Positions 7,219 to 38,121 of a stretch of 38,121 nucleotides of DNA are shown piece by piece. A model generated the notes under the pieces. The model was not told the origin of the DNA. It searched no databases and was given only the letters and a program-made list of their open reading frames with translations. The DNA lies in IMG/VR virus record IMGVR_UViG_3300047400_000075, positions 1 through 38,121 of that record. The stretch is one strand, 5' to 3'. Source of the stretch: a virus (Duplodnaviria > Caudoviricetes). The translations under genes and the position numbers were made by a program. Each line of letters starts with the position of its first letter. Within the stretch, counting starts at the first letter, position 1.

Positions 7219-7246
7219 GCAACCGCGCCAAAGCCCCTTTGAGTCG
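7219..7246. repeat. 28-bp direct repeat, copy 1
   Basis: gcaaccgcgccaaagcccctttgagtcg, identical to 7922-7949. Confidence 0.95.
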
Positions 7247-7291
7247 GTCCCGGTGGTGGCCGAGAGGCTGGCAATCAACCGCGTGGTCACA

Positions 7292-7902: not shown

Positions 7903-8108
7903 CGACCCACCATCAGCCAACGCAACCGCGCCAAAGCCCCTTTGAGTCGTTCGCGGTCCTGCTCCAGCGCATCGACCCGCTGCGTCAGCTGATCGACACC
8001 GTGATGCAACTGGATCACGGCGTCCATGGTCGTGTTGACCGCTGCGCCCTGCTGCTTGATGGCTTTCTTCAGGTCTGCCCGATTGCCCATCGTGCCGTTA
8101 ATCCGCAT
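7899..8108 (-). CDS. Small coiled-coil protein
   Basis: GAGGAGG SD; heptad pattern; ends LARLRWLMVGR. Confidence 0.6.
   Translation of the reverse strand: MRINGTMGNRADLKKAIKQQGAAVNTTMDAVIQLHHGVDQLTQRVDALEQDRERLKGALARLRWLMVGR
7922..7949. repeat. 28-bp direct repeat, copy 2
   Basis: Identical to 7219-7246; encodes RLKGALARL. Confidence 0.95.
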
Positions 8109-8117
8109 CGTCCTCCT

Positions 8118-8894
8118 CTATGCCGCCAACAAGAGAATCGTCGCCAGTTCGTCCTCGGTCGGGTTTCGCACGCCTTTTGCCTTCACGCTGCCCACCGCAG
8201 ACCGTGCTACGCAACCACCGATCGGCAGGGCGTTCGTCTGACCGACAGCCGTAACCCGACCAACCCGGCAATGGGCGTTCGCACCCCATTTCAGGTCTGC
8301 CTGTGCCGCAATCGACTCGTGCTGCTCAGGGAATGGGGCAATACCGATCCGCTGTTGATTGGCAAAGACCCACCACGGGACGCCCTCGCCCAGCGCCGTG
8401 AGATTGCCGCTGTAACTGTAGGCGACCACGCCGACGACGGCAATCGTGGCGGCCTGCGAGGCACCCCCACCACTAGCCGTGACCGTGCCGACCGCGCTCG
8501 AGGCCGACACCCCAGAGACGGCATACAGCCCTGCCGCCGTTTCGGTCGTGCTGCCGACACTGGACGCACTGGAGACGCCAGAGACCGTCTTGAGCGCCCC
8601 CGCCTGCTCTGTGGCGGTGCCGATCGCACTCGTCGCACTGACGCCTGACGTGGCTTTGAACGCGCCAGCCTTAGCCGTCGACGTGCCAATGGCAGACGTG
8701 GCCGAGACGCCTGTTGCGGCTTTGAGTGCCCCGCCACTGACGACGACCGTCCCGATGGCGCCTGTCGCACTGACGCCAGAGACGGCAATCAGCCCATCCG
8801 ACCCAGGCAGGATTAGGAGGCCCTGCAGGGGAATCGGATGCGGCCGTCTCCCGCGTGTCAGCGGGAACAGGAGGGGATTCTGGTTATTCCGCAC
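8118..8894 (-). CDS. Fibre-like virion protein with five 22-aa repeats
   Basis: Repeats such as LKAATGVSATSAIGTSTAKAGA; ends EDELATILLLAA. Confidence 0.65.
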   Translation of the reverse strand: MRNNQNPLLFPLTRGRRPHPIPLQGLLILPGSDGLIAVSGVSATGAIGTVVVSGGALKAATGVSATSAIGTSTAKAGAFKATSGVSATSAIGTATEQAGALKTVSGVSSASSVGSTTETAAGLYAVSGVSASSAVGTVTASGGGASQAATIAVVGVVAYSYSGNLTALGEGVPWWVFANQQRIGIAPFPEQHESIAAQADLKWGANAHCRVGRVTAVGQTNALPIGGCVARSAVGSVKAKGVRNPTEDELATILLLAA

Positions 8895-16021: not shown

Positions 16022-16203
16022 GCGGCATCCTCCCGGCCTCGGACGACTTGTGCCGCCTTGGCTTCATCCACGCACACCTCATCCGTGGCGCGCTCCAACT
16101 CCTGCACAATGTCCAGCCGAATCAGGCTCAACAAGGTCTGCATCTCACTCACCCGCGCATGCAGGCGCAGTAATCGACCCAATCGCTCGCCGTGTGTGCT
16201 CAT
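16018..16203 (-). CDS. Hypothetical protein
   Basis: ATG 16203 overlaps the dnaB stop. Confidence 0.5.
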   Translation of the reverse strand: MSTHGERLGRLLRLHARVSEMQTLLSLIRLDIVQELERATDEVCVDEAKAAQVVRGREDAA

Positions 16204-17552
16204 ACACGCTCCATTGAGGCAAATCGATACTGATCGCGGAAGTTCGCCAGGTCCACCAGCCCGGTCGGGTTGCCGCGCTGTTTTTCGATAATCAACTCCA
16301 CCTTCGACGGCTGACCAGGCGGCAAGTCGGCAAGCTCGGCTCGGGTTTCCAGTCGATGCAGCAGCAGGATGATGTCCGCATGCGCCTCGATGTCCCCGGA
16401 CTCCCGCAAGTCCGCCATGCTCGGCCGGTCTTTCTCCTCTGCCGACCGCCGCAACTGGCTGAGGACGAGCACGGGTACCTGCATCGACCGAGCAAGCTCC
16501 TTCAGCTCCCACGCCATTTCGCCCACGACTTGCGTCCGGTTCTGCGACTTCGCCGCTTTACCGTCCGACGGCCGCATGAGCTGGAGATAGTCCACAATCA
16601 CCAACCCAAGCCCGTGCCGCAGTTGCACCTGCTGGGCCTTCGCACGCACGTCCGTCGCGGACATACCGGGTTGCTCATCGACCCAGAACGGCAAGGTGGC
16701 CAAATCGCCCAGAGCCGACCCGATGCGTCGATCGACCTGTTCGTCTCGCTTGCAATACCCGCGCAGATAGGAGAATCCGTCCACTTTGGCGGTATTCCAC
16801 AAGGCGCGGGACCAGACCGACCGAGAGCCCATCTCGAGCGAACAAAACAGCACGGTCATGTGTCTCGCCGCGTGCAGGCCAATCTGGAGCGCCAACGCCG
16901 TCTTGCCGACCGATGGCCGTGCTCCCAGCACCACGAGTTCGCCCGGTTGCAGGCCGAACGACAGCCGATCGAAGTCCTCGATGCCGGTGGCAATGCCGGT
17001 CGGCTGATGGCGTCGGTCGGCCAGCGATTGCAGGTAGGCAAACAGGTCTTGCGTCATCGCGTTGGCGTCGAACAGGGTGTCTGTCCGCTTGCTGCTCGCG
17101 AGTCGGAAGAACACGTCTTGCGCCTTGGCGATCACGTCGTCGGCTTCGGCGGAGGTTTCCATCGCGGCGTCAATGACTTCCGAGGCCCGCTCGATGGCCG
17201 CCCGTCGCCGCGAGGCGTCGATCACGATGTCAGCGTACCGGGTGACATTCGCGCTCCGAGGGATGCCGTCGGTCAGCTTGGACAGCCGCGAGATCCCCAC
17301 ATCGTCCATCGCGGCTCCAAGCGCATGACGGACGGTCAGGAAGTCGATCGGCTGACTCTGTTTTGCCAACGACAGCATCGCGGTATAGACCAACCCGCAC
17401 CAACCCTGCCCGAAATGCTCAGGCTTGAGCCGGTCGGCGATCTCCGCCAGTCGGGCGTTATCCACCATCACGGCGCCGAGCACAGAGCATTCGGCATCCG
17501 AGGCACGCGGTAGATCGGCCGTTAAACGCACTGTGGAGCCCGTAGAGGCCAT
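16200..17552 (-). CDS. dnaB: Replicative DNA helicase
   Basis: AECSVLGA N-domain, GARPSVGKT, SLEM, IVDYLQLM, LSQL, DLRESGDIEAHAD. Confidence 0.96.
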   Translation of the reverse strand: MASTGSTVRLTADLPRASDAECSVLGAVMVDNARLAEIADRLKPEHFGQGWCGLVYTAMLSLAKQSQPIDFLTVRHALGAAMDDVGISRLSKLTDGIPRSANVTRYADIVIDASRRRAAIERASEVIDAAMETSAEADDVIAKAQDVFFRLASSKRTDTLFDANAMTQDLFAYLQSLADRRHQPTGIATGIEDFDRLSFGLQPGELVVLGARPSVGKTALALQIGLHAARHMTVLFCSLEMGSRSVWSRALWNTAKVDGFSYLRGYCKRDEQVDRRIGSALGDLATLPFWVDEQPGMSATDVRAKAQQVQLRHGLGLVIVDYLQLMRPSDGKAAKSQNRTQVVGEMAWELKELARSMQVPVLVLSQLRRSAEEKDRPSMADLRESGDIEAHADIILLLHRLETRAELADLPPGQPSKVELIIEKQRGNPTGLVDLANFRDQYRFASMERV

Positions 17553-18349
17553 TACGCACGCCCCCGGCCCAGGAGGTAGTCCATCCGGGCGATCGCGGCT
17601 GGAGACCGCATTAAATCGATTTTGGGGGCTTGTGCCGATGCGCCGCGATCATTCGCCCGCCCCAGCCACGCCACGATGAACCGAGGCATCCCCTTCGCCG
17701 TCTTCCGCCGTGTCGGATTGGCATCGAGCCACGCCTTAGCCCTATACAGCTCGCCTAGGATATTTAGGCTGGGGAAGGCACGCCTCCATTCGTCGATATG
17801 GGCCTCATAAACGCCCCAGCGCGACTTCGCTCCAACCGTGACAAATTCAAGGATCGGAGGCGTTGGCGAAGCCATCTCAGCGCCCTCGGGCTCGGAGTCG
17901 GCTTGTGCCGGCTCTGAGCTATCCTCCTTCCCTTCCCTTCCCTTCCCTTCCCCACGTGCGTGCACGTGCGTGCACGTGCGTTGCAATGCGTCTATTGGTA
18001 GCTCGCCCTCTGGAGTCGGGGCCGGGATCATGGACTTGGCTTCGCGTAAATTGACCACTTGATGCTCATGCCACGAAGGGATATAGCCGTACCACCGGTC
18101 CTGGTGCTCGTATTTGATGATGTGCCCGTTGACTCTCAACGCCTCGAGCACGGCGGAGAAATCAACCGGGTCGAACGGTAGGCAGTCCAGCTTCAGCACG
18201 TCCGGTTCCCACTCAAAGCGGCCTTCTCGGTCGGCGGCAGTCCACAGACCGGCAAATGCCACGCGGAGCGGTAAACCTGACTCACGCTCAGCCCGATACA
18301 GCCGAGTGTGGCGAAAGAAGTTTGGCTTGATGGTGCGAATCCGGGCCAT
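17552..18349 (-). CDS. Phage replication initiator
   Basis: MARIRTIKPNFF..GLWTAADREGR N-domain, internal repeats, WLDANPTRRKT..GMPRFIVAWL C-domain; upstream of dnaB. Confidence 0.85.
   Translation of the reverse strand: MARIRTIKPNFFRHTRLYRAERESGLPLRVAFAGLWTAADREGRFEWEPDVLKLDCLPFDPVDFSAVLEALRVNGHIIKYEHQDRWYGYIPSWHEHQVVNLREAKSMIPAPTPEGELPIDALQRTCTHVHARGEGKGREGKEDSSEPAQADSEPEGAEMASPTPPILEFVTVGAKSRWGVYEAHIDEWRRAFPSLNILGELYRAKAWLDANPTRRKTAKGMPRFIVAWLGRANDRGASAQAPKIDLMRSPAAIARMDYLLGRGRA
17926..17980. repeat. Putative replication origin repeats inside the initiator gene
   Basis: (CCTTC)x5 then (CACGTGCG-TG)x3. Confidence 0.6.
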
Positions 18350-18377
18350 TACCGAGTGCTCCGGATGCATGTGATCG

Positions 18378-19204: not shown

Positions 19205-19852
19205 CTACGCGCCTCCCTCGCTGCTCACGGCCAGTGAGGCGATGATGGCGTCTCGCTCGGCCTTGGTCACGATGTGTATCCCGCCGCGCTTGACTGGCGT
19301 GTCGTGGGCTGTCCAGTACATCCAGGCGCTCGTCACGCTGTCTGTGGATCCACTACCTCTATAGTCGGTCCGTGGGAGCACAATCACTTGTTGCGGTGGA
19401 TGCGCGGCTAACCATGCGCCACGCTCGTCTGTCGGCTCCAGAAACGACAGTCGCAGCAGCATCACCGCGCCCCAGATGCTCCACTTGTGCGCGTGCTTCA
19501 AAATCTCGAAAGCTTGATTGAAGGGCGGGTTCGTGATCGTCAGCGTCGGTTTCCCCTTCTGTCCACACACCCACGTCCACGAGTCACGCATGGTCGCATC
19601 GGCCAAGAACGTCGGCGCGAACGGTTCTCTGGCAACAATGTCCGACGTGAACCAGTGCAGCTTCGGCCGAACCCTCTGCATCGCTCTCACGATGGCCCCG
19701 TCTCCAACACAAGGCTCGTAGACCGAACACAGCTTCGGGATGTTGACGTAGCGCGCCATGGCTACCGTTTGCCACGCTGGCGTGACGTAAAAGTCATCCG
19801 AACGCCGAGCCTGCGGATCGCCAACGTCTTTGAGCACGCCGGACGTATTCAC
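19205..19852 (-). CDS. DNA adenine (amino) methyltransferase
   Basis: DFYVTP, motif I YEPCVGDG, catalytic TNPPF, LLRLSFLE; GTG 19852 coupled to the upstream stop. Confidence 0.85.
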   Translation of the reverse strand: MNTSGVLKDVGDPQARRSDDFYVTPAWQTVAMARYVNIPKLCSVYEPCVGDGAIVRAMQRVRPKLHWFTSDIVAREPFAPTFLADATMRDSWTWVCGQKGKPTLTITNPPFNQAFEILKHAHKWSIWGAVMLLRLSFLEPTDERGAWLAAHPPQQVIVLPRTDYRGSGSTDSVTSAWMYWTAHDTPVKRGGIHIVTKAERDAIIASLAVSSEGGA

Positions 19853-19962
19853 CGCTGCCACCGTGGATGCACCGGAAAGCCGTACTGCTTGAGCGCCTCC
19901 AATCGCGTGGTGGCAGAGGGGCCAGCCATCAGACGCCAGAGGATTGTGCGAAGCCAAGTCAT
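19849..19962 (-). CDS. 37-aa hypothetical protein
   Basis: Own translation MTWLRTILWRLMAGPSATTRLEALKQYGFPVHPRWQR; ATGA and GTGA overlaps. Confidence 0.45.
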   Translation of the reverse strand: MTWLRTILWRLMAGPSATTRLEALKQYGFPVHPRWQR

Positions 19963-20183
19963 GCGTCCTGCTCCTTGATCGCCTGTTCGATGCGTTCGGC
20001 GGCAGCGATGAGCTCGGCGGCGAGTTGACGTGCATTGGCCGCACCATCGCTATTCCATCCCGGCAGGTAAACCATGTCTGGCGCATCTTCGTGATCGATG
20101 CCTACGATATAGCCACGTTCGTAGGAATACTCAAGCACCACATCCACGACACCGAGCAAATCGAAACGCTGTACTTCTTTCAT
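19959..20183 (-). CDS. Hypothetical protein
   Basis: ATG 20183 with a GAGGGAGGGAG SD; ARQLAAELIAAA motif. Confidence 0.65.
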   Translation of the reverse strand: MKEVQRFDLLGVVDVVLEYSYERGYIVGIDHEDAPDMVYLPGWNSDGAANARQLAAELIAAAERIEQAIKEQDA

Positions 20184-20206
20184 CTCGCGCTCCCTCCCTC
20201 TGTGAA

Positions 20207-20344
20207 CTGTTGGCGGCGTGCAGCGCGGCATGCCATGAGGCGTTGACCGTGCCCCGTGTGCGACCTCGCAAGGTGCCTCTAGGTTGAACACCCCGTGACT
20301 TCAGGTGTTGGGCTCAACCGCACCCACGCCGACGCCGCCAACAG
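20207..20344 (-). ncRNA. Structured RNA unit C (3' unit of tandem array)
   Basis: Perfect 13-bp closing IR CTGTTGGCGGCGT/ACGCCGCCAACAG with nested stems GTGCG/CGCAC, GGTTGA/TCAACC, AACACC/GGTGTT, ACCT/AGGT. Confidence 0.6.
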
Positions 20345-20350
20345 ACTGAC

Positions 20351-20439
20351 TGGTGAGTGGGGCCGTTACCGAAAAACGGCGACTTGGGCACATCAGCCCG
20401 CTGTCCCGGCTCACTCGGCAAAGCCGCGCCCACTCACCA
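20351..20439 (-). ncRNA. tRNA-like cloverleaf RNA unit B ending in ACCA
   Basis: 11-bp closing IR; GAGTGGG/CCCACTC + A + CCA; three arms; non-canonical loops. Confidence 0.65.
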
Positions 20440-20445
20440 TCTCAA

Positions 20446-20586
20446 TTGCCGCGAGCGCACCATCGGATGCGCTGCGTGTCGTGGTGTTCTCTTCTACATA
20501 TGCTGCCGAGGTCATCGCATGATTCCTTTCGATGAATCAGCATCGCGTTCTGTAGCACCACTACACGCCCAGAACTGGCGCGGCAA
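20446..20586 (-). ncRNA. Structured RNA unit A (5' unit of tandem array)
   Basis: TTGCCGCG/CGCGGCAA closing stem; CCAG/CTGG; GCGTGT-GTGGTG-CTACA-ATGCTG nested long arm; AGCGCA/TGCGCT. Confidence 0.6.
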
Positions 20587-20588
20587 AC

Positions 20589-20921
20589 TTAAACAGTCGC
20601 CTTGAACTCCTCCGCACTCGCCCGCGCAAAGGCTTTGAGCGTGCGGCTCATCTCCAACACCAGCACCCGCGCATCCTTGGCCGTGCGATAGCGGGCGTAT
20701 TCCTCACTCGCCTGCGCTCTGACCTTGGCCCTATTAGCAGCTTCCTGACTGTCCAGCGCCGCATCGAGCACCTTGAGATAGGCCAGCTCCGCCTCCCGCT
20801 CCTCGACCATCACGTAGCCGAGTAGCGCGACGGCCTGATTGGATAGCTCGCTGGCCTTGAGCGGGGACAAGTCGCCGAGCATTTCCCTCTGCATGGCGGC
20901 GATGCGATCACGGACGGTCAC
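20589..20921 (-). CDS. Helical protein, possibly a UvsY-like recombination mediator
   Basis: AANRAKVRAQASEEY coiled-coil pattern; early-region context. Confidence 0.5.
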   Translation of the reverse strand: MTVRDRIAAMQREMLGDLSPLKASELSNQAVALLGYVMVEEREAELAYLKVLDAALDSQEAANRAKVRAQASEEYARYRTAKDARVLVLEMSRTLKAFARASAEEFKATV

Positions 20922-21220
20922 ACCAGAGCCCTCCACAACGTGACCGTCCGCCCATAGGGCGACAGGCCGTGTTCATCCGTGCGGGCCTCGATGAGATTGG
21001 CCCGCAGTAACCCATTCCGCACGCTGCACACCGTGGACATCGGCCAGCCGGTCAAACGCACGATGTCGTGATCCGTGAGTCCGCGCGGCGCCGTGCGTAG
21101 CAGACAGAGCAGCGACGTCGTCTTCGTCAGGCGCGTCTCTCGTGCCGCCTCCGCAGCCTTGGCTGAGTGGTGGCGACTGATCGGCGTGGAGCCTGAGAAC
21201 GGCAGCGAGGCTGGTGTCAT
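20918..21220 (-). CDS. Winged-helix DNA-binding protein
   Basis: RGLTDHDIVRLTGWPMSTVCSVRNGLLRANLIE..GRTVTLW. Confidence 0.7.
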   Translation of the reverse strand: MTPASLPFSGSTPISRHHSAKAAEAARETRLTKTTSLLCLLRTAPRGLTDHDIVRLTGWPMSTVCSVRNGLLRANLIEARTDEHGLSPYGRTVTLWRALV

Positions 21221-23996: not shown

Positions 23997-24827
23997 CTAG
24001 GTGAGTGCTGGCTGCTTAACCCACTGAGCCCGAACGCGGCCACCAGGGAATGCGCTCTGCTCGTTAACTGAGCCGTCCTCGGCGTGTCCTCTGGTGATCG
24101 GATAGTCCACTGAGACGCGGCCAGAGGCGTACAGATTCACGCTGTTGACGGCGACGTAATGCACATCCCAGTACGTGACCGTCAACGGGCCCCACTTGTA
24201 GACTGGCATTCCGAACAGTTCATTGTCTGGCAACCAGGCACTCAGGGGGTTGCCTTGGTGCGGCTGTCCGTACGGCTCTCGAAGATTCACCTTGCGCGGC
24301 CCGTACGCGCAAAGCTTATCGAGCGTCCGTGGAACGTCTGCCCTGTTCTCTGGGCCGAGAACCACGTAGATCGCTATCTCGCGCGGATCGTGAAGGATGT
24401 CGGACAGGTCGGCTGGCGGGCCTCCCATCATCGACGCATTGATCACAGGGTCCAGCGAGCACACCGTGACGCTGGCCTTGTCATAGGCCAGCCATCTGTC
24501 GCGGTGATTGGGGATCGCGATTCCGTTCGTCCTGACACCCACTGGCACGCCCAGTTCACGGAGACGCCCAACCAACGCCTCAGTATGTCGATAGAGCAAG
24601 TGGTCCGTGTTCGTGCCGCTGACCCACACGTCTGACACGCGCCGTTCTCGGCACTGGCGCATGAACTCGTCAAGCCCTTCCAGCGGCCACGTGTCGCGCG
24701 TGTCGAATCCGTCTAGGGCCATCATGTGCTGGCCGATACAGAAATAGCAGGCGCGGTTACACGGCCCGGAGAGATGCACGTTGCCGAACCAGTGATCGAA
24801 TGCTGGCGACGAATTCAGGCAGCCCAT
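23997..24827 (-). CDS. Radical SAM enzyme
   Basis: CNRACYFC (CxxxCxxC), VSGTNTD, VRTNG, SLDP. Confidence 0.88.
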   Translation of the reverse strand: MGCLNSSPAFDHWFGNVHLSGPCNRACYFCIGQHMMALDGFDTRDTWPLEGLDEFMRQCRERRVSDVWVSGTNTDHLLYRHTEALVGRLRELGVPVGVRTNGIAIPNHRDRWLAYDKASVTVCSLDPVINASMMGGPPADLSDILHDPREIAIYVVLGPENRADVPRTLDKLCAYGPRKVNLREPYGQPHQGNPLSAWLPDNELFGMPVYKWGPLTVTYWDVHYVAVNSVNLYASGRVSVDYPITRGHAEDGSVNEQSAFPGGRVRAQWVKQPALT

Positions 24828-25301: not shown

Positions 25302-25684
25302 GCCTGCACCGTCGAGGATGGCGCCTTGACGCGCTCGAAATGGCCCATGTCTTTCTGCTGCCAACGGCCACCCCACCGCAAACCGACCGACTCGCCAATC
25401 TGGCCGATGCGCTGCCAAATCGGATCACCGGCATCCCACGCGAGCTTGTCCGGCCCGCGCAGGTCGTATTGGCTGTAGGGGCAGAGATCGATCGCGTCCC
25501 CGTCAATGTGCAGGCTATGGGCTGTCCACGAGACACCCTTGGCGAGATTGGCTTGATGCTCGGCCAGTGTGCGCCGTGTCTCCACGATAATCACGGGAAT
25601 GTTGGCTTCCACCAGACGCGCCAACAGTTCGATGGCGAGCGGCTTGAACGCGGGCGAGAGATCGTCAAGTAGGCGACTACTCAC
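25298..25684 (-). CDS. Endolysin, M15 (L-Ala-D-Glu) metallopeptidase
   Basis: ETRRT..Q, SLHIDGDAID, GLRWGGRW..DMGHFE; GTG 25684. Confidence 0.9.
   Translation of the reverse strand: MSSRLLDDLSPAFKPLAIELLARLVEANIPVIIVETRRTLAEHQANLAKGVSWTAHSLHIDGDAIDLCPYSQYDLRGPDKLAWDAGDPIWQRIGQIGESVGLRWGGRWQQKDMGHFERVKAPSSTVQA
25646..25683. repeat. 38-bp direct repeat (endolysin 5' end)
   Basis: 36/38 identical to 27154-27191. Confidence 0.93.
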
Positions 25685-26460
25685 CGCGGCAGCTCCGCGA
25701 CCGGCTTCCACGTCGTGAGGCTTCCAGTCGGATCGCATCGACGGATGCCGAACCGATCCTGATCGCCAGTCGTGAGCCCGTCCCTGTACTGGTAGTAACA
25801 GGCCGAGAGCGCGCCGTGCGCCTGAATGTCGAGCATCCGCTGAGTGGCCAAGCGGAACACATCGGCGTCTGTGTAGGTCGCGCAGTTCCCCGGCCACCAC
25901 TTCGGCAACCAGCGCCACCGCGGCGGCTGCTTCCCGGTGTGATACCCGAACTCCGTGCAGATCCAGCGCCGATCACCGACGAGGGACAGGAACCGCGGCC
26001 AATCCGGCGCCTCGTAGACGTGCGCGCTGATGCCGATGACCGGCACGGGCCCGAGCGCCTCGAGCATCTTCTCGAGCCAGGCCAGCGCGGATCCGGAGAC
26101 GTTCGAGATCGCCCCGATCCACAACTGACAACCGTTCTCATAGGCAATGACCGCCGCGTTCCGCGCCATCTCGGCGTAGTCGGTGGGCGGGATGTGGACG
26201 TCGACATTCCCGTCCGGCTCGTTCGCCAGTTCGACATCACAGCCCGCCAGCGCCGTGCCCAGGTCTCGCAACTGCCCGGCGTCACGCACGACGACGACCG
26301 GCCACAGGCCCGCCAGACGCGCCTCCGCGATGGCCGAGCCGATGCGCGCCGCGTCGTCGCCCAGGCTCCACGTCGTGAACCGCACCAGTTTCCAACCGCG
26401 CTCACGCACGGCGAGGAGGTCATCTGCCGACATGCCGAGTCCGTTCAGGCCGAGGTCCAT
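25681..26460 (-). CDS. Clan GH-A glycoside hydrolase
   Basis: ELANEPD (acid/base), SAHVY, WICTEFGY (nucleophile), YQY..FGI. Confidence 0.8.
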   Translation of the reverse strand: MDLGLNGLGMSADDLLAVRERGWKLVRFTTWSLGDDAARIGSAIAEARLAGLWPVVVVRDAGQLRDLGTALAGCDVELANEPDGNVDVHIPPTDYAEMARNAAVIAYENGCQLWIGAISNVSGSALAWLEKMLEALGPVPVIGISAHVYEAPDWPRFLSLVGDRRWICTEFGYHTGKQPPRWRWLPKWWPGNCATYTDADVFRLATQRMLDIQAHGALSACYYQYRDGLTTGDQDRFGIRRCDPTGSLTTWKPVAELPR

Positions 26461-27063: not shown

Positions 27064-27192
27064 CTACCCTTTCAGCCGACCTGGTGTCGGCACAATCTGG
27101 CCGGCGACGAAGGCCCCGACCACGCTTCCAAGATGGATACACGCTTGCCCGAGGAACGCGGGCGAGAGGTCGTCAAGCAGGCGACTACTCAT
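27064..27192 (-). pseudogene. Truncated/chimeric copy of the endolysin start (42 aa)
   Basis: MSSRLLDDLSPAF matches the endolysin N-terminus, then diverges. Confidence 0.6.
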
Positions 27193-27493
27193 CGCTGCCC
27201 GCCTTCTGCCGCGAGCACCGCATATCCAGCCCCAAACGCGCCTCAGCATCTCTCGCGGCAAGCTCAGCATAACCAGCCAAATCCCTAAAATGGTCTGGCC
27301 ATGACGCTTGCCCACTCATGATCCTGGCGAGCTTGCACGCGATCATGTCCAGCGCCTCCCGCTGCACATGGGTGGCGTTCTCCCAGCCTTTCGACTGGCG
27401 GAACTGACTACGGAGCATTTGACCATAGCGGGCATTGTCTTCAAACTTGCCGTGGGTCGTGCCGCGCTCCGTCAACAGGGCGTCTGTAGTCAT
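27185..27493 (-). CDS. DUF6378-like protein
   Basis: LTERGTTHGKF..EALDMIACKLARI..DHFRDLAGYAEL. Confidence 0.8.
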   Translation of the reverse strand: MTTDALLTERGTTHGKFEDNARYGQMLRSQFRQSKGWENATHVQREALDMIACKLARIMSGQASWPDHFRDLAGYAELAARDAEARLGLDMRCSRQKAGSDE

Positions 27494-37612: not shown

Positions 37613-38121
37613 GCGGCGGCCCCTTCAAAGTCGCCCCACGCGCCAACCATCGCCGTCACGACAGGATCGGTGACCACCACCTCGATCACGCCATCGCGCC
37701 ATCGGCCATTCCGCCGAAGTTCCGCGCGTGTGGTATAGGCACCTGTGGCCCCAAGCGGCACCCATCGTTCATCGCCGAACGTCTTGCCACCATCCCGCGA
37801 GATCCGCACCATCGCCTGCGGAGTGGCCCCCTGACCGCTCGTGCCGACACCAGACTGGAAGTCAAACCGCAAGCGATGGCACGTGATCCAGGAGCCATCG
37901 CCGACCACATGCGGCGACCGACGCAACCGGCGCAGCGTCTGACTGCCATCGGCTGCGGTATTGGCCGATAGCTCATAAATCGTGCCGTCCGTCGCCGATC
38001 CAACGTAGTGATACTCGAACGCGAAGATGTGCGTGCGCGCCAGTGGGAGATGCCAGTCCCCGTCGCGCACATTCCACGACAGCCACTCATGCCATTGCTC
38101 GGTCGTGTTGTCGTAGACCCA
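37609..38121 (-). CDS. gp10-like tail hub, C-terminal part
   Basis: RRLRRSPH..FQSGVG..PQAMVRISRDGGKTFG..LGATGAY..VTDPV. Confidence 0.88.
   Translation of the reverse strand, partial: WVYDNTTEQWHEWLSWNVRDGDWHLPLARTHIFAFEYHYVGSATDGTIYELSANTAADGSQTLRRLRRSPHVVGDGSWITCHRLRFDFQSGVGTSGQGATPQAMVRISRDGGKTFGDERWVPLGATGAYTTRAELRRNGRWRDGVIEVVVTDPVVTAMVGAWGDFEGAAA
37886..38121. repeat. Terminal direct repeat, right copy
   Basis: Matches 1-236 at 235/236. Confidence 0.97.

Follow-up and report, generated by a model that had tools for sequence, protein, structure and literature searches.

A tRNA-shaped 85-nt element of a G+C-rich freshwater phage lies in a strongly folded gap and belongs to a putative accessory cassette

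An 85-nt stretch on the minus strand of the genome of an uncultured freshwater phage can be drawn as a tRNA cloverleaf that ends in CCA, and we wondered whether it works as a tRNA mimic or belongs to some other structure. To answer this, we analysed the whole IMG/VR record that carries it (38,121 bp, hereafter the window), which is estimated to be complete and contains the element once. The G+C content stays at 61-66% along the whole record, the minus strand carries nearly all of the long ORFs, and the runs containing the stretch are labelled as aquatic or freshwater metagenomes. PHROG matches delineated a podovirus-type structural block, with P22-type coat, scaffold, portal, large terminase, head closure and ejection proteins, and an early/replication block, with DnaB helicase, replication initiator, HNH nuclease and DNA methyltransferase. 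The element is found in the replication gene block, with the exonuclease, initiator and DnaB genes nearby. The nearest cultured phages show only ~30% identity in the coat protein and <60% identity in DnaB. Both ends of the record carry the same 236-nt direct repeat (1-236 and 37886-38121, 100% identical), and the head-closure gene is divided between these two ends. Thus, although the record is classed as 'linear', the genome is likely complete and circularly permuted or terminally redundant, with a length of ~37,885 bp.

Other repeats were noticed elsewhere in the record. A 36-nt direct repeat (7219-7254 and 7922-7957, 94% identical) lies near two gaps among the structural genes and may be a repeated regulatory site, and a 45-nt direct repeat (25646-25690 and 27154-27198, 91% identical, 1.5 kb separation) lies near the lysis region. 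Within ORF 8118-8894, a 32-nt unit occurs four times at 8485-8780 with a spacing of 66 or 132 nt, suggesting that this unannotated structural gene encodes a protein with a periodic repeat. Finally, the 276-aa early ORF at 23997-24827 matched radical SAM only weakly (E 1.4e-5; 25.8 bits, the cut-off being 29.5).

Table 1. Position of the element, of its parts and of the surrounding features in the window
Feature	Position	Strand	Remarks
85-nt element	20351..20435	minus	sequence exactly as given in the original prediction
Acceptor stem, 7 bp	20435-20429 / 20361-20355	minus	
D arm	20426-20407	minus	5-bp stem, 10-nt loop (20421-20412)
'Anticodon' arm	20405-20381	minus	3+4 bp, 3x2 internal loop, 6-nt loop
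T arm	20380-20362	minus	6-bp stem, 7-nt loop (20374-20368), flush on acceptor
ACCA	20354-20351	minus	
Domain 1, 139-nt stem domain	20447..20585	minus	from the fold; outside the putative cassette; 50 predicted pairs
Domain 2, 102 nt	20345..20446	minus	from the fold; contains the element; 39 predicted pairs (5 G-U)
Domain 3, 138-nt branched stem	20207..20344	minus	from the fold; 52 predicted pairs
Putative accessory cassette, 538 bp	19909..20446	minus	domain 2, domain 3, 74-aa ORF and first half of 37-aa ORF; skipped in relatives
74-aa ORF, orphan, acidic (pI 4.2)	19959..20183	minus	ATG 20183, strong Shine-Dalgarno GGGAGGGAG
37-aa ORF	19849..19962	minus	our own reading of the sequence
Possible 34-aa ORF or remnant	20411..20515	minus	AAGGA 7 nt upstream; our own reading
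DnaB helicase	16200-17552		PHROG match
Replication initiator	17552-18370		PHROG match

The sequence of the element and all the helices listed for it in the original prediction were present as described (Table 1). A script check counted 25 cloverleaf pairs, all of them Watson-Crick and none G-U, every helix being perfect. The linkers between the arms count 2, 1 and 0 nt, and ACCA follows. The arm said to be T-like and stacked on the acceptor is indeed flush with it and bears a 7-nt loop, but its stem has 6 bp where that of tRNA has 5. The lack of a proper anticodon loop and of a variable region was borne out as well, with a 6-nt loop, UGAUGU, capping an interrupted stem and 0 nt left for the variable region.

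How often would such an arrangement occur by chance? A strict descriptor was used that admitted Watson-Crick pairs only. It placed a T arm (5-6 bp, 7-nt loop) directly against the acceptor, called for a D arm of 3-5 bp behind a 2-nt linker and a closing stem behind a 1-nt linker, and left no room for a variable region, CCA being optional. It had a single match in the window, at the element, and none in 100 dinucleotide-shuffled copies, both strands being searched. This showed that the cloverleaf arrangement is not a chance product of base composition. Among the same 100 shuffles, an acceptor with a flush T arm arose 32 times and an acceptor with both T and D arms twice. With a loose descriptor, in which G-U pairs and variable loops were allowed, no enrichment was observed (9+5 matches in the window vs 7.9 per shuffle). 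The 85-nt fold itself had a z of -2.97, and none of 200 shuffles was equally stable. Stems of 7 bp with NCCA behind them are frequent in this genome (8 sites for the minus strand, 17 for the plus strand). Hairpins with an NCCA end do not appear as gene punctuation among these sites, the element being the only one located in a gap.

The likeness to tRNA comprises the 7-bp acceptor, the 2-nt linker, the D-type hairpin, the 1-nt linker, the central arm, and the T-type hairpin whose 7-nt loop arm lies flush on the acceptor and is followed by A-CCA. Differences begin with the central arm: tRNA has a 5-bp anticodon stem, a 7-nt loop and a variable region of at least 4 nt, whereas the element has 3 bp, a 3x2 internal loop, 4 bp, a 6-nt loop and 0 nt, respectively. 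In addition, tRNA conserves a set of nucleotides engaged in tertiary structure, namely U8, G18G19, T54-Psi55-C56 and G53-C61. The element is devoid of all of these, with a C at position 8, a D loop (UUGCCGAGUG) without GG, and a T loop, UUUCGGU, closed by U-A. Helix connectivity is the only positive support for tRNA mimicry.

As the original prediction had anticipated, ARAGORN reported no tRNA or tmRNA in the window, and the region stayed empty with -ps and down to the 80% threshold (-ps80). At the 60% threshold (-ps60) a 'tRNA-Ser' appeared in another register, and we regarded it as noise. The tRNA model RF00005 matched nowhere in the record at E<=10, and its control was positive in 14/14 genomes. 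Scanning the whole window with Rfam at gathering thresholds yielded no match. When the cut-off was relaxed to E<=10, the sole match on 1 kb was a spurious Legionella sRNA located elsewhere in the stretch; on 131 nt, with the laxest filters, a microRNA hairpin model and archaeal C/D-box sRNAs came up, all far below threshold. The best of these near-matches was a plain hairpin model, and no tRNA, tmRNA, C4 or Y-RNA model was among the E<=10 matches on the 131 nt.

The 3' end had been described as a discriminator plus CCA, but these letters are not a free tail. The segments TGGTGAGTGGG (20351-20361) and CCCACTCACCA (20429-20439) are perfect inverted repeats of each other over 11 nt; ACCA consequently pairs with the UGGU located just 5' of the element and makes up the outer end of the repeat. 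The NCCA of tRNA is single-stranded, whereas ACCA in the unprocessed sequence here is paired with the leader. In a fold of the whole gap in which the element lies, this 11-bp stem gains 5 more pairs and closes a predicted 102-nt domain (20345-20446).

The cloverleaf was not the fold preferred by the energy model. Its energy was -36.9 kcal/mol vs -42.7 kcal/mol for a rod that pairs the D-arm with the T-arm sequences, and the D and T helices had an ensemble pairing probability of 0.004. In all three dangle settings the rod had the better energy, with a margin of 5.8 to 10.6 kcal/mol at 37 C that widened at 20 C, bearing in mind that nearest-neighbour models often misjudge four-way junctions. Because the barrier from cloverleaf to rod was estimated at 13.6 kcal/mol, a cloverleaf made during transcription could persist. 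The D and T loops are complementary over 6 contiguous pairs (-6.9 kcal/mol), and the central helix of the rod could instead be a kiss between these loops; this is weak evidence, since 14% of random loop pairs offer an equally long pairing by chance.

A possibility raised by these features was that a tRNA-shaped RNA is excised from an early transcript by RNase P, to act either as a regulator like C4 and CI or as a tRNA-like processing signal. The C4 RNA of P1/P7 and the CI RNA of P4 are cloverleaf-like regulators that RNase P cuts from the transcript of their own operon, and the loops of C4 are complementary to a target in that operon. The element resembles C4 in its size (~80 nt), its several hairpins on a basal stem, its location in a phage early operon, its orientation in the direction of the genes and its CCA-like 3' side. 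C4 has a complementary target. For the element, no target stood out among 51 translation start regions: when antisense duplexes were computed against these, 68% of 60 shuffled elements were equally good, with energies from the routine that looked inflated. A further difference is that the phage studied here is without recognisable immunity or antirepressor context. In a table of PMC2864571, 'c4 antisense RNA' is listed as RF01695, from Proteobacteria and phages, and the c4-a1b1 motif is listed without accession. The proposed kinship with C4 and CI was not upheld by the RF01695 model, which had 0 matches at E<=10 over the whole record (7 candidates scored). Likewise, no C4-like family, c4-2 or c4-a1b1 match was obtained in three whole-library Rfam scans, the membership of c4-2 and c4-a1b1 in the library being unconfirmed.

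According to PMC4919922, bacterial RNase P takes hairpin model substrates, pre-4.5S RNA and some phage-induced regulatory RNAs, and the same review states that the RNA of the bacterial enzyme pairs with free RCCA. In the mascRNA of MALAT1, as described in PMC8457004, a leader-trailer extended acceptor stem aids processing in human cells. The element shares with such substrates a long helix or tRNA-like fold, an RCCA-type 3' side and a position within a longer transcript, and, as with mascRNA, leader-trailer pairing extends its acceptor stem too. Moreover, the strict connectivity found once in the window and in none of the shuffles argues for a tRNA mimic of this sort, the acceptor and T stems would stack to 13 bp followed by ACCA, the 6-pair loop-loop contact could build an elbow and bring the cloverleaf near the energy of the rod, and the folding barrier could let a co-transcriptional cloverleaf persist. 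In contrast, the RCCA of a bacterial substrate is expected to pair with RNase P RNA (PMC4919922), whereas that of the element would pair with the UGGU of its leader, as judged from sequence. The silence of RF01695, RF00005 and ARAGORN, the absence of U8, G18G19, the T-loop motif and G53-C61, the 14% chance rate of the loop pairing and the antisense score matched by 68% of shuffles also argue against this scenario, which we consider distinctly unlikely.

The gap that contains the element was also folded as a whole. This gene-free gap of 405 nt (20184-20588) separates the 115-aa ORF (20589-20936) from the 74-aa ORF, both on the minus strand, and sits in a one-directional early/replication gene block. 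It folds with -194.5 kcal/mol (z = -4.5), a stability equalled by none of 100 shuffles, and its energy per nucleotide, -0.480, is the lowest of the 17 gaps of at least 60 nt in the gene map of the record. Three predicted domains stand back-to-back and fill most of the gap, and the final 23 nt, where the 74-aa ORF has its Shine-Dalgarno sequence, stay single-stranded in the fold. Domain 2 has the perfect 11 bp (20429-20439 / 20351-20361) as its lower stem, with the 5 additional pairs. Domain 3 opens with a perfect 13-nt inverted repeat (20332-20344 / 20207-20219), has a predicted lower stem of 13+8+4 pairs with two 1-nt bulges, and ends just before that Shine-Dalgarno sequence. No promoter-like site was found in the gap region. 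A search for an intrinsic terminator on the minus strand of 19900-21000 yielded no G+C-rich hairpin followed by a U run.

The plus strand of the gap folds equally well (z = -4.9 vs -4.5 for the minus strand). The raw energy of the minus strand is better by 14 kcal/mol, and shuffles show an equal difference. Thus, folding tells neither which strand is concerned nor whether RNA or DNA is. Such behaviour is consistent with a structure at the DNA level, in which compound palindromes would extrude as hairpins in single-stranded DNA, for instance at a priming or recombination site. The 25 cloverleaf pairs being all Watson-Crick, both strands can form the cloverleaf, and the surroundings are a replication gene block with exonuclease, initiator and DnaB near. 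However, neither iterons nor repeated boxes were found in the gap, and relatives with the same neighbour genes are without the element (see below). A DNA-level role strikes us as improbable.

We looked at how the locus is arranged in related phages. In the freshwater runs X11 and X12, one contig each places 19908 immediately next to 20447 and so lacks the 538 nt between them, although joints seen, as here, at 80% likeness with a 35-nt side can be unreliable. Independent support for the skip was provided by the geometry of a 2,801-nt contig (X12 record 10), in which 217 nt lie between the matches to 20589 and 19908 as compared with 680 nt in the window. The first paired base of domain 2 is exactly where the skipped segment starts. 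We read 19909-20446 as a putative accessory cassette that is absent from contigs of related phages. Absence of the element from relatives also speaks against an RNase P substrate.

Several observations were made at the borders of this segment. The 3' hairpin of domain 1 (20445-20484) is identical over its 40 nt in an X11 contig of a related phage, the adjacent gene of which differs at many positions. This hairpin may serve regulation or recombination as a conserved site; a 24-nt pattern derived from it had 0 matches in viral contigs and 0 in metagenome contigs. The possible 34-aa ORF (ATG 20515) reads into the element as far as a UGA in the 'D loop', where it terminates, and its upstream frame is not kept in relatives, which show a 1-nt length difference. 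By our reading, the joint 19908/20447 would fuse the frame of this ORF in phase with that of the 37-aa ORF, which would happen by accident in one case out of three; a small gene may thus be interrupted by the cassette. A group I or group II intron was considered and rejected: no intron family matched at E<=10 in 19900-20900, and the bases flanking the joint, A/A and C/A, are non-canonical. In run X8, two main contigs end at 20335-20364 with a 30-nt overlap, and another contig matches from 20335 onward and has unrelated A+T-rich letters before. This departure at 20335 may reflect a population variant or a chimera beside the element.

Searches for homologues were then considered together. A blastn search with 20251-20620 found no match in the phage collection. 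The 115-aa ORF, the 74-aa ORF and the exonuclease had no relatives in viral contigs, where DnaB recovered only a 100%-identical fragment (L002) that ends before the gap. A protein search with the 115-aa ORF gave one relative, at 95%, and a metagenome scan with an alignment of this ORF found none. A pattern of the acceptor stem hit 2 viral and 6 genome sequences, all eight unrelated inside; when aligned globally with the element, fixed ends counted, they agreed at 52-58/85 positions. Judged by these viral, genome, metagenome and phage-collection searches, the element is apparently without homologue, and covariation thus cannot support any fold. No base difference within it was seen in any run containing the stretch. 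In the metatranscriptome-labelled runs X1-X3 and X10, the region is embedded in contigs as long as 34,593 nt with broad coverage of the phage, and such contigs show neither transcription nor ends.

These results bear on two other explanations. The element may have no function of its own, being palindromic sequence carried along with the cassette or created at its acquisition. That it is an orphan in all homologue searches, is dispensable in relatives and shows no variation that could reveal selection would agree with such a history; yet a structure so strong and regular is not expected from unselected sequence, and we find this explanation unlikely. The original prediction also envisaged a decoy for tRNA-targeting defence toxins. 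What would speak for a decoy is only the overall shape of the element and its location in the cassette, next to the gene of an acidic orphan protein. However, the 7-nt anticodon loop and the anticodon-stem geometry are absent, which makes the element a poor mimic for anticodon nucleases, its CCA end is paired and no conservation was found, so that a decoy is highly improbable.

The protein encoded next to the element was examined for hints. The downstream gene most plausibly starts at ATG 20183 behind GGGAGGGAG, and the 74-aa ORF is the only gene wholly inside the cassette. A protein search recovered only the protein itself, no Pfam or PHROG family matched it, and the atlas gave nothing above chance. 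Its single-sequence model (pLDDT 71.8) has four strands and a long helix, and the best Foldseek match in the PDB had an E of 0.3, none being significant. The 74-aa protein gives no clue to the role of the RNA. On its 3' side, the ATG of the 37-aa ORF overlaps the stop of the 74-aa ORF (ATGA), and the stop of the 37-aa ORF overlaps a GTG (GTGA) that is the likely methyltransferase start at 19852. These overlapping stops and starts in 19849-20183 suggest translational coupling.

Domains 2 and 3 might also constitute a stand-alone non-coding RNA of ~240 nt, of an undescribed class, which may work with the 74-aa protein. The two domains adjoin each other, have strong folds and share the cassette with the ORF, and no Rfam family matches them. 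Against this, no promoter-like or terminator-like site brackets the two domains, the missing homologues leave no sign of selection on the structure, and an acidic protein (pI 4.2) is unlike an RNA binder. A separate RNA is in our opinion rather unlikely. Still less credence is due to a combined scheme, in which the cassette would supply an anticodon-less tRNA-shaped RNA with a D/T-loop elbow, released when the leader-CCA helix opens, that would deceive or regulate host enzymes handling tRNA together with its 74-aa partner. The tRNA-mimic interpretation in general is neither supported nor refuted by these analyses.

What, then, is the element most plausibly doing? It is a real, strongly structured and lineage-specific part of the accessory cassette. 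Our preferred reading, to which we assign a probability of roughly one in three, is that the 85 nt form the core of the 102-nt domain and that this domain would act as a folded RNA leader, that is, as a double-stranded processing or stability signal for the accessory gene, and not as a tRNA mimic. Such a leader is the most economical reading given the position in the gene block, the folding of the gap, the preference for the rod, the lack of a terminator-like site on the minus strand and of any recognised RNA family, the unpaired Shine-Dalgarno sequence and the accessory nature of the segment. The gap would be transcribed with the flanking genes into an early polycistronic RNA. The helix of domain 2, with its 11-bp perfect stem in ~34 pairs, would then be cut by a double-strand-specific RNase, RNase III for example, or would block an exonuclease, and the lower stem of domain 3, with 13 perfect bp in ~25 pairs, would likewise be cut or block exonucleases. 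Cleavage or stabilisation would uncouple the message of the accessory gene from the upstream message and set its stability.

Hairpins of the RNase III type consist of near-continuous double-stranded RNA of at least about 2 helical turns, and domains 2 and 3 have this in prediction. RNase III processing hairpins lie between the early genes of T7-type phages. The domains resemble them in being intergenic within a one-directional polycistronic block and in having imperfect stems of more than two helical turns and no U-tract. They differ in being larger, branched and G+C-rich and in coming as a pair or triple per gap. Some results sit less easily with the folded leader. The four local helices of the cloverleaf are perfect and placed as in tRNA, an arrangement found in 0/100 shuffles and far more specific than a double-stranded signal needs. 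The plus strand folds too (z = -4.9), and the sequence does not tell whether RNA acts, nor from which strand. Finally, the cassette joints, at 80% likeness with a 35-nt side, may be unreliable.

Collectively, these data provide a useful positive result in the form of a map of a 538-bp cassette, with two stem domains and an orphan acidic ORF, which would be inserted at a conserved hairpin. They also call for caution in reading function from sequence only, as an apparently perfect acceptor stem with CCA can simply belong to the tip of an extended inverted repeat, and helices connected as in tRNA do not by themselves make a tRNA mimic. If the element did prove to be a working tRNA mimic, this G+C-rich freshwater phage would join the few cases of phages with tRNA-shaped regulators or counter-defence.
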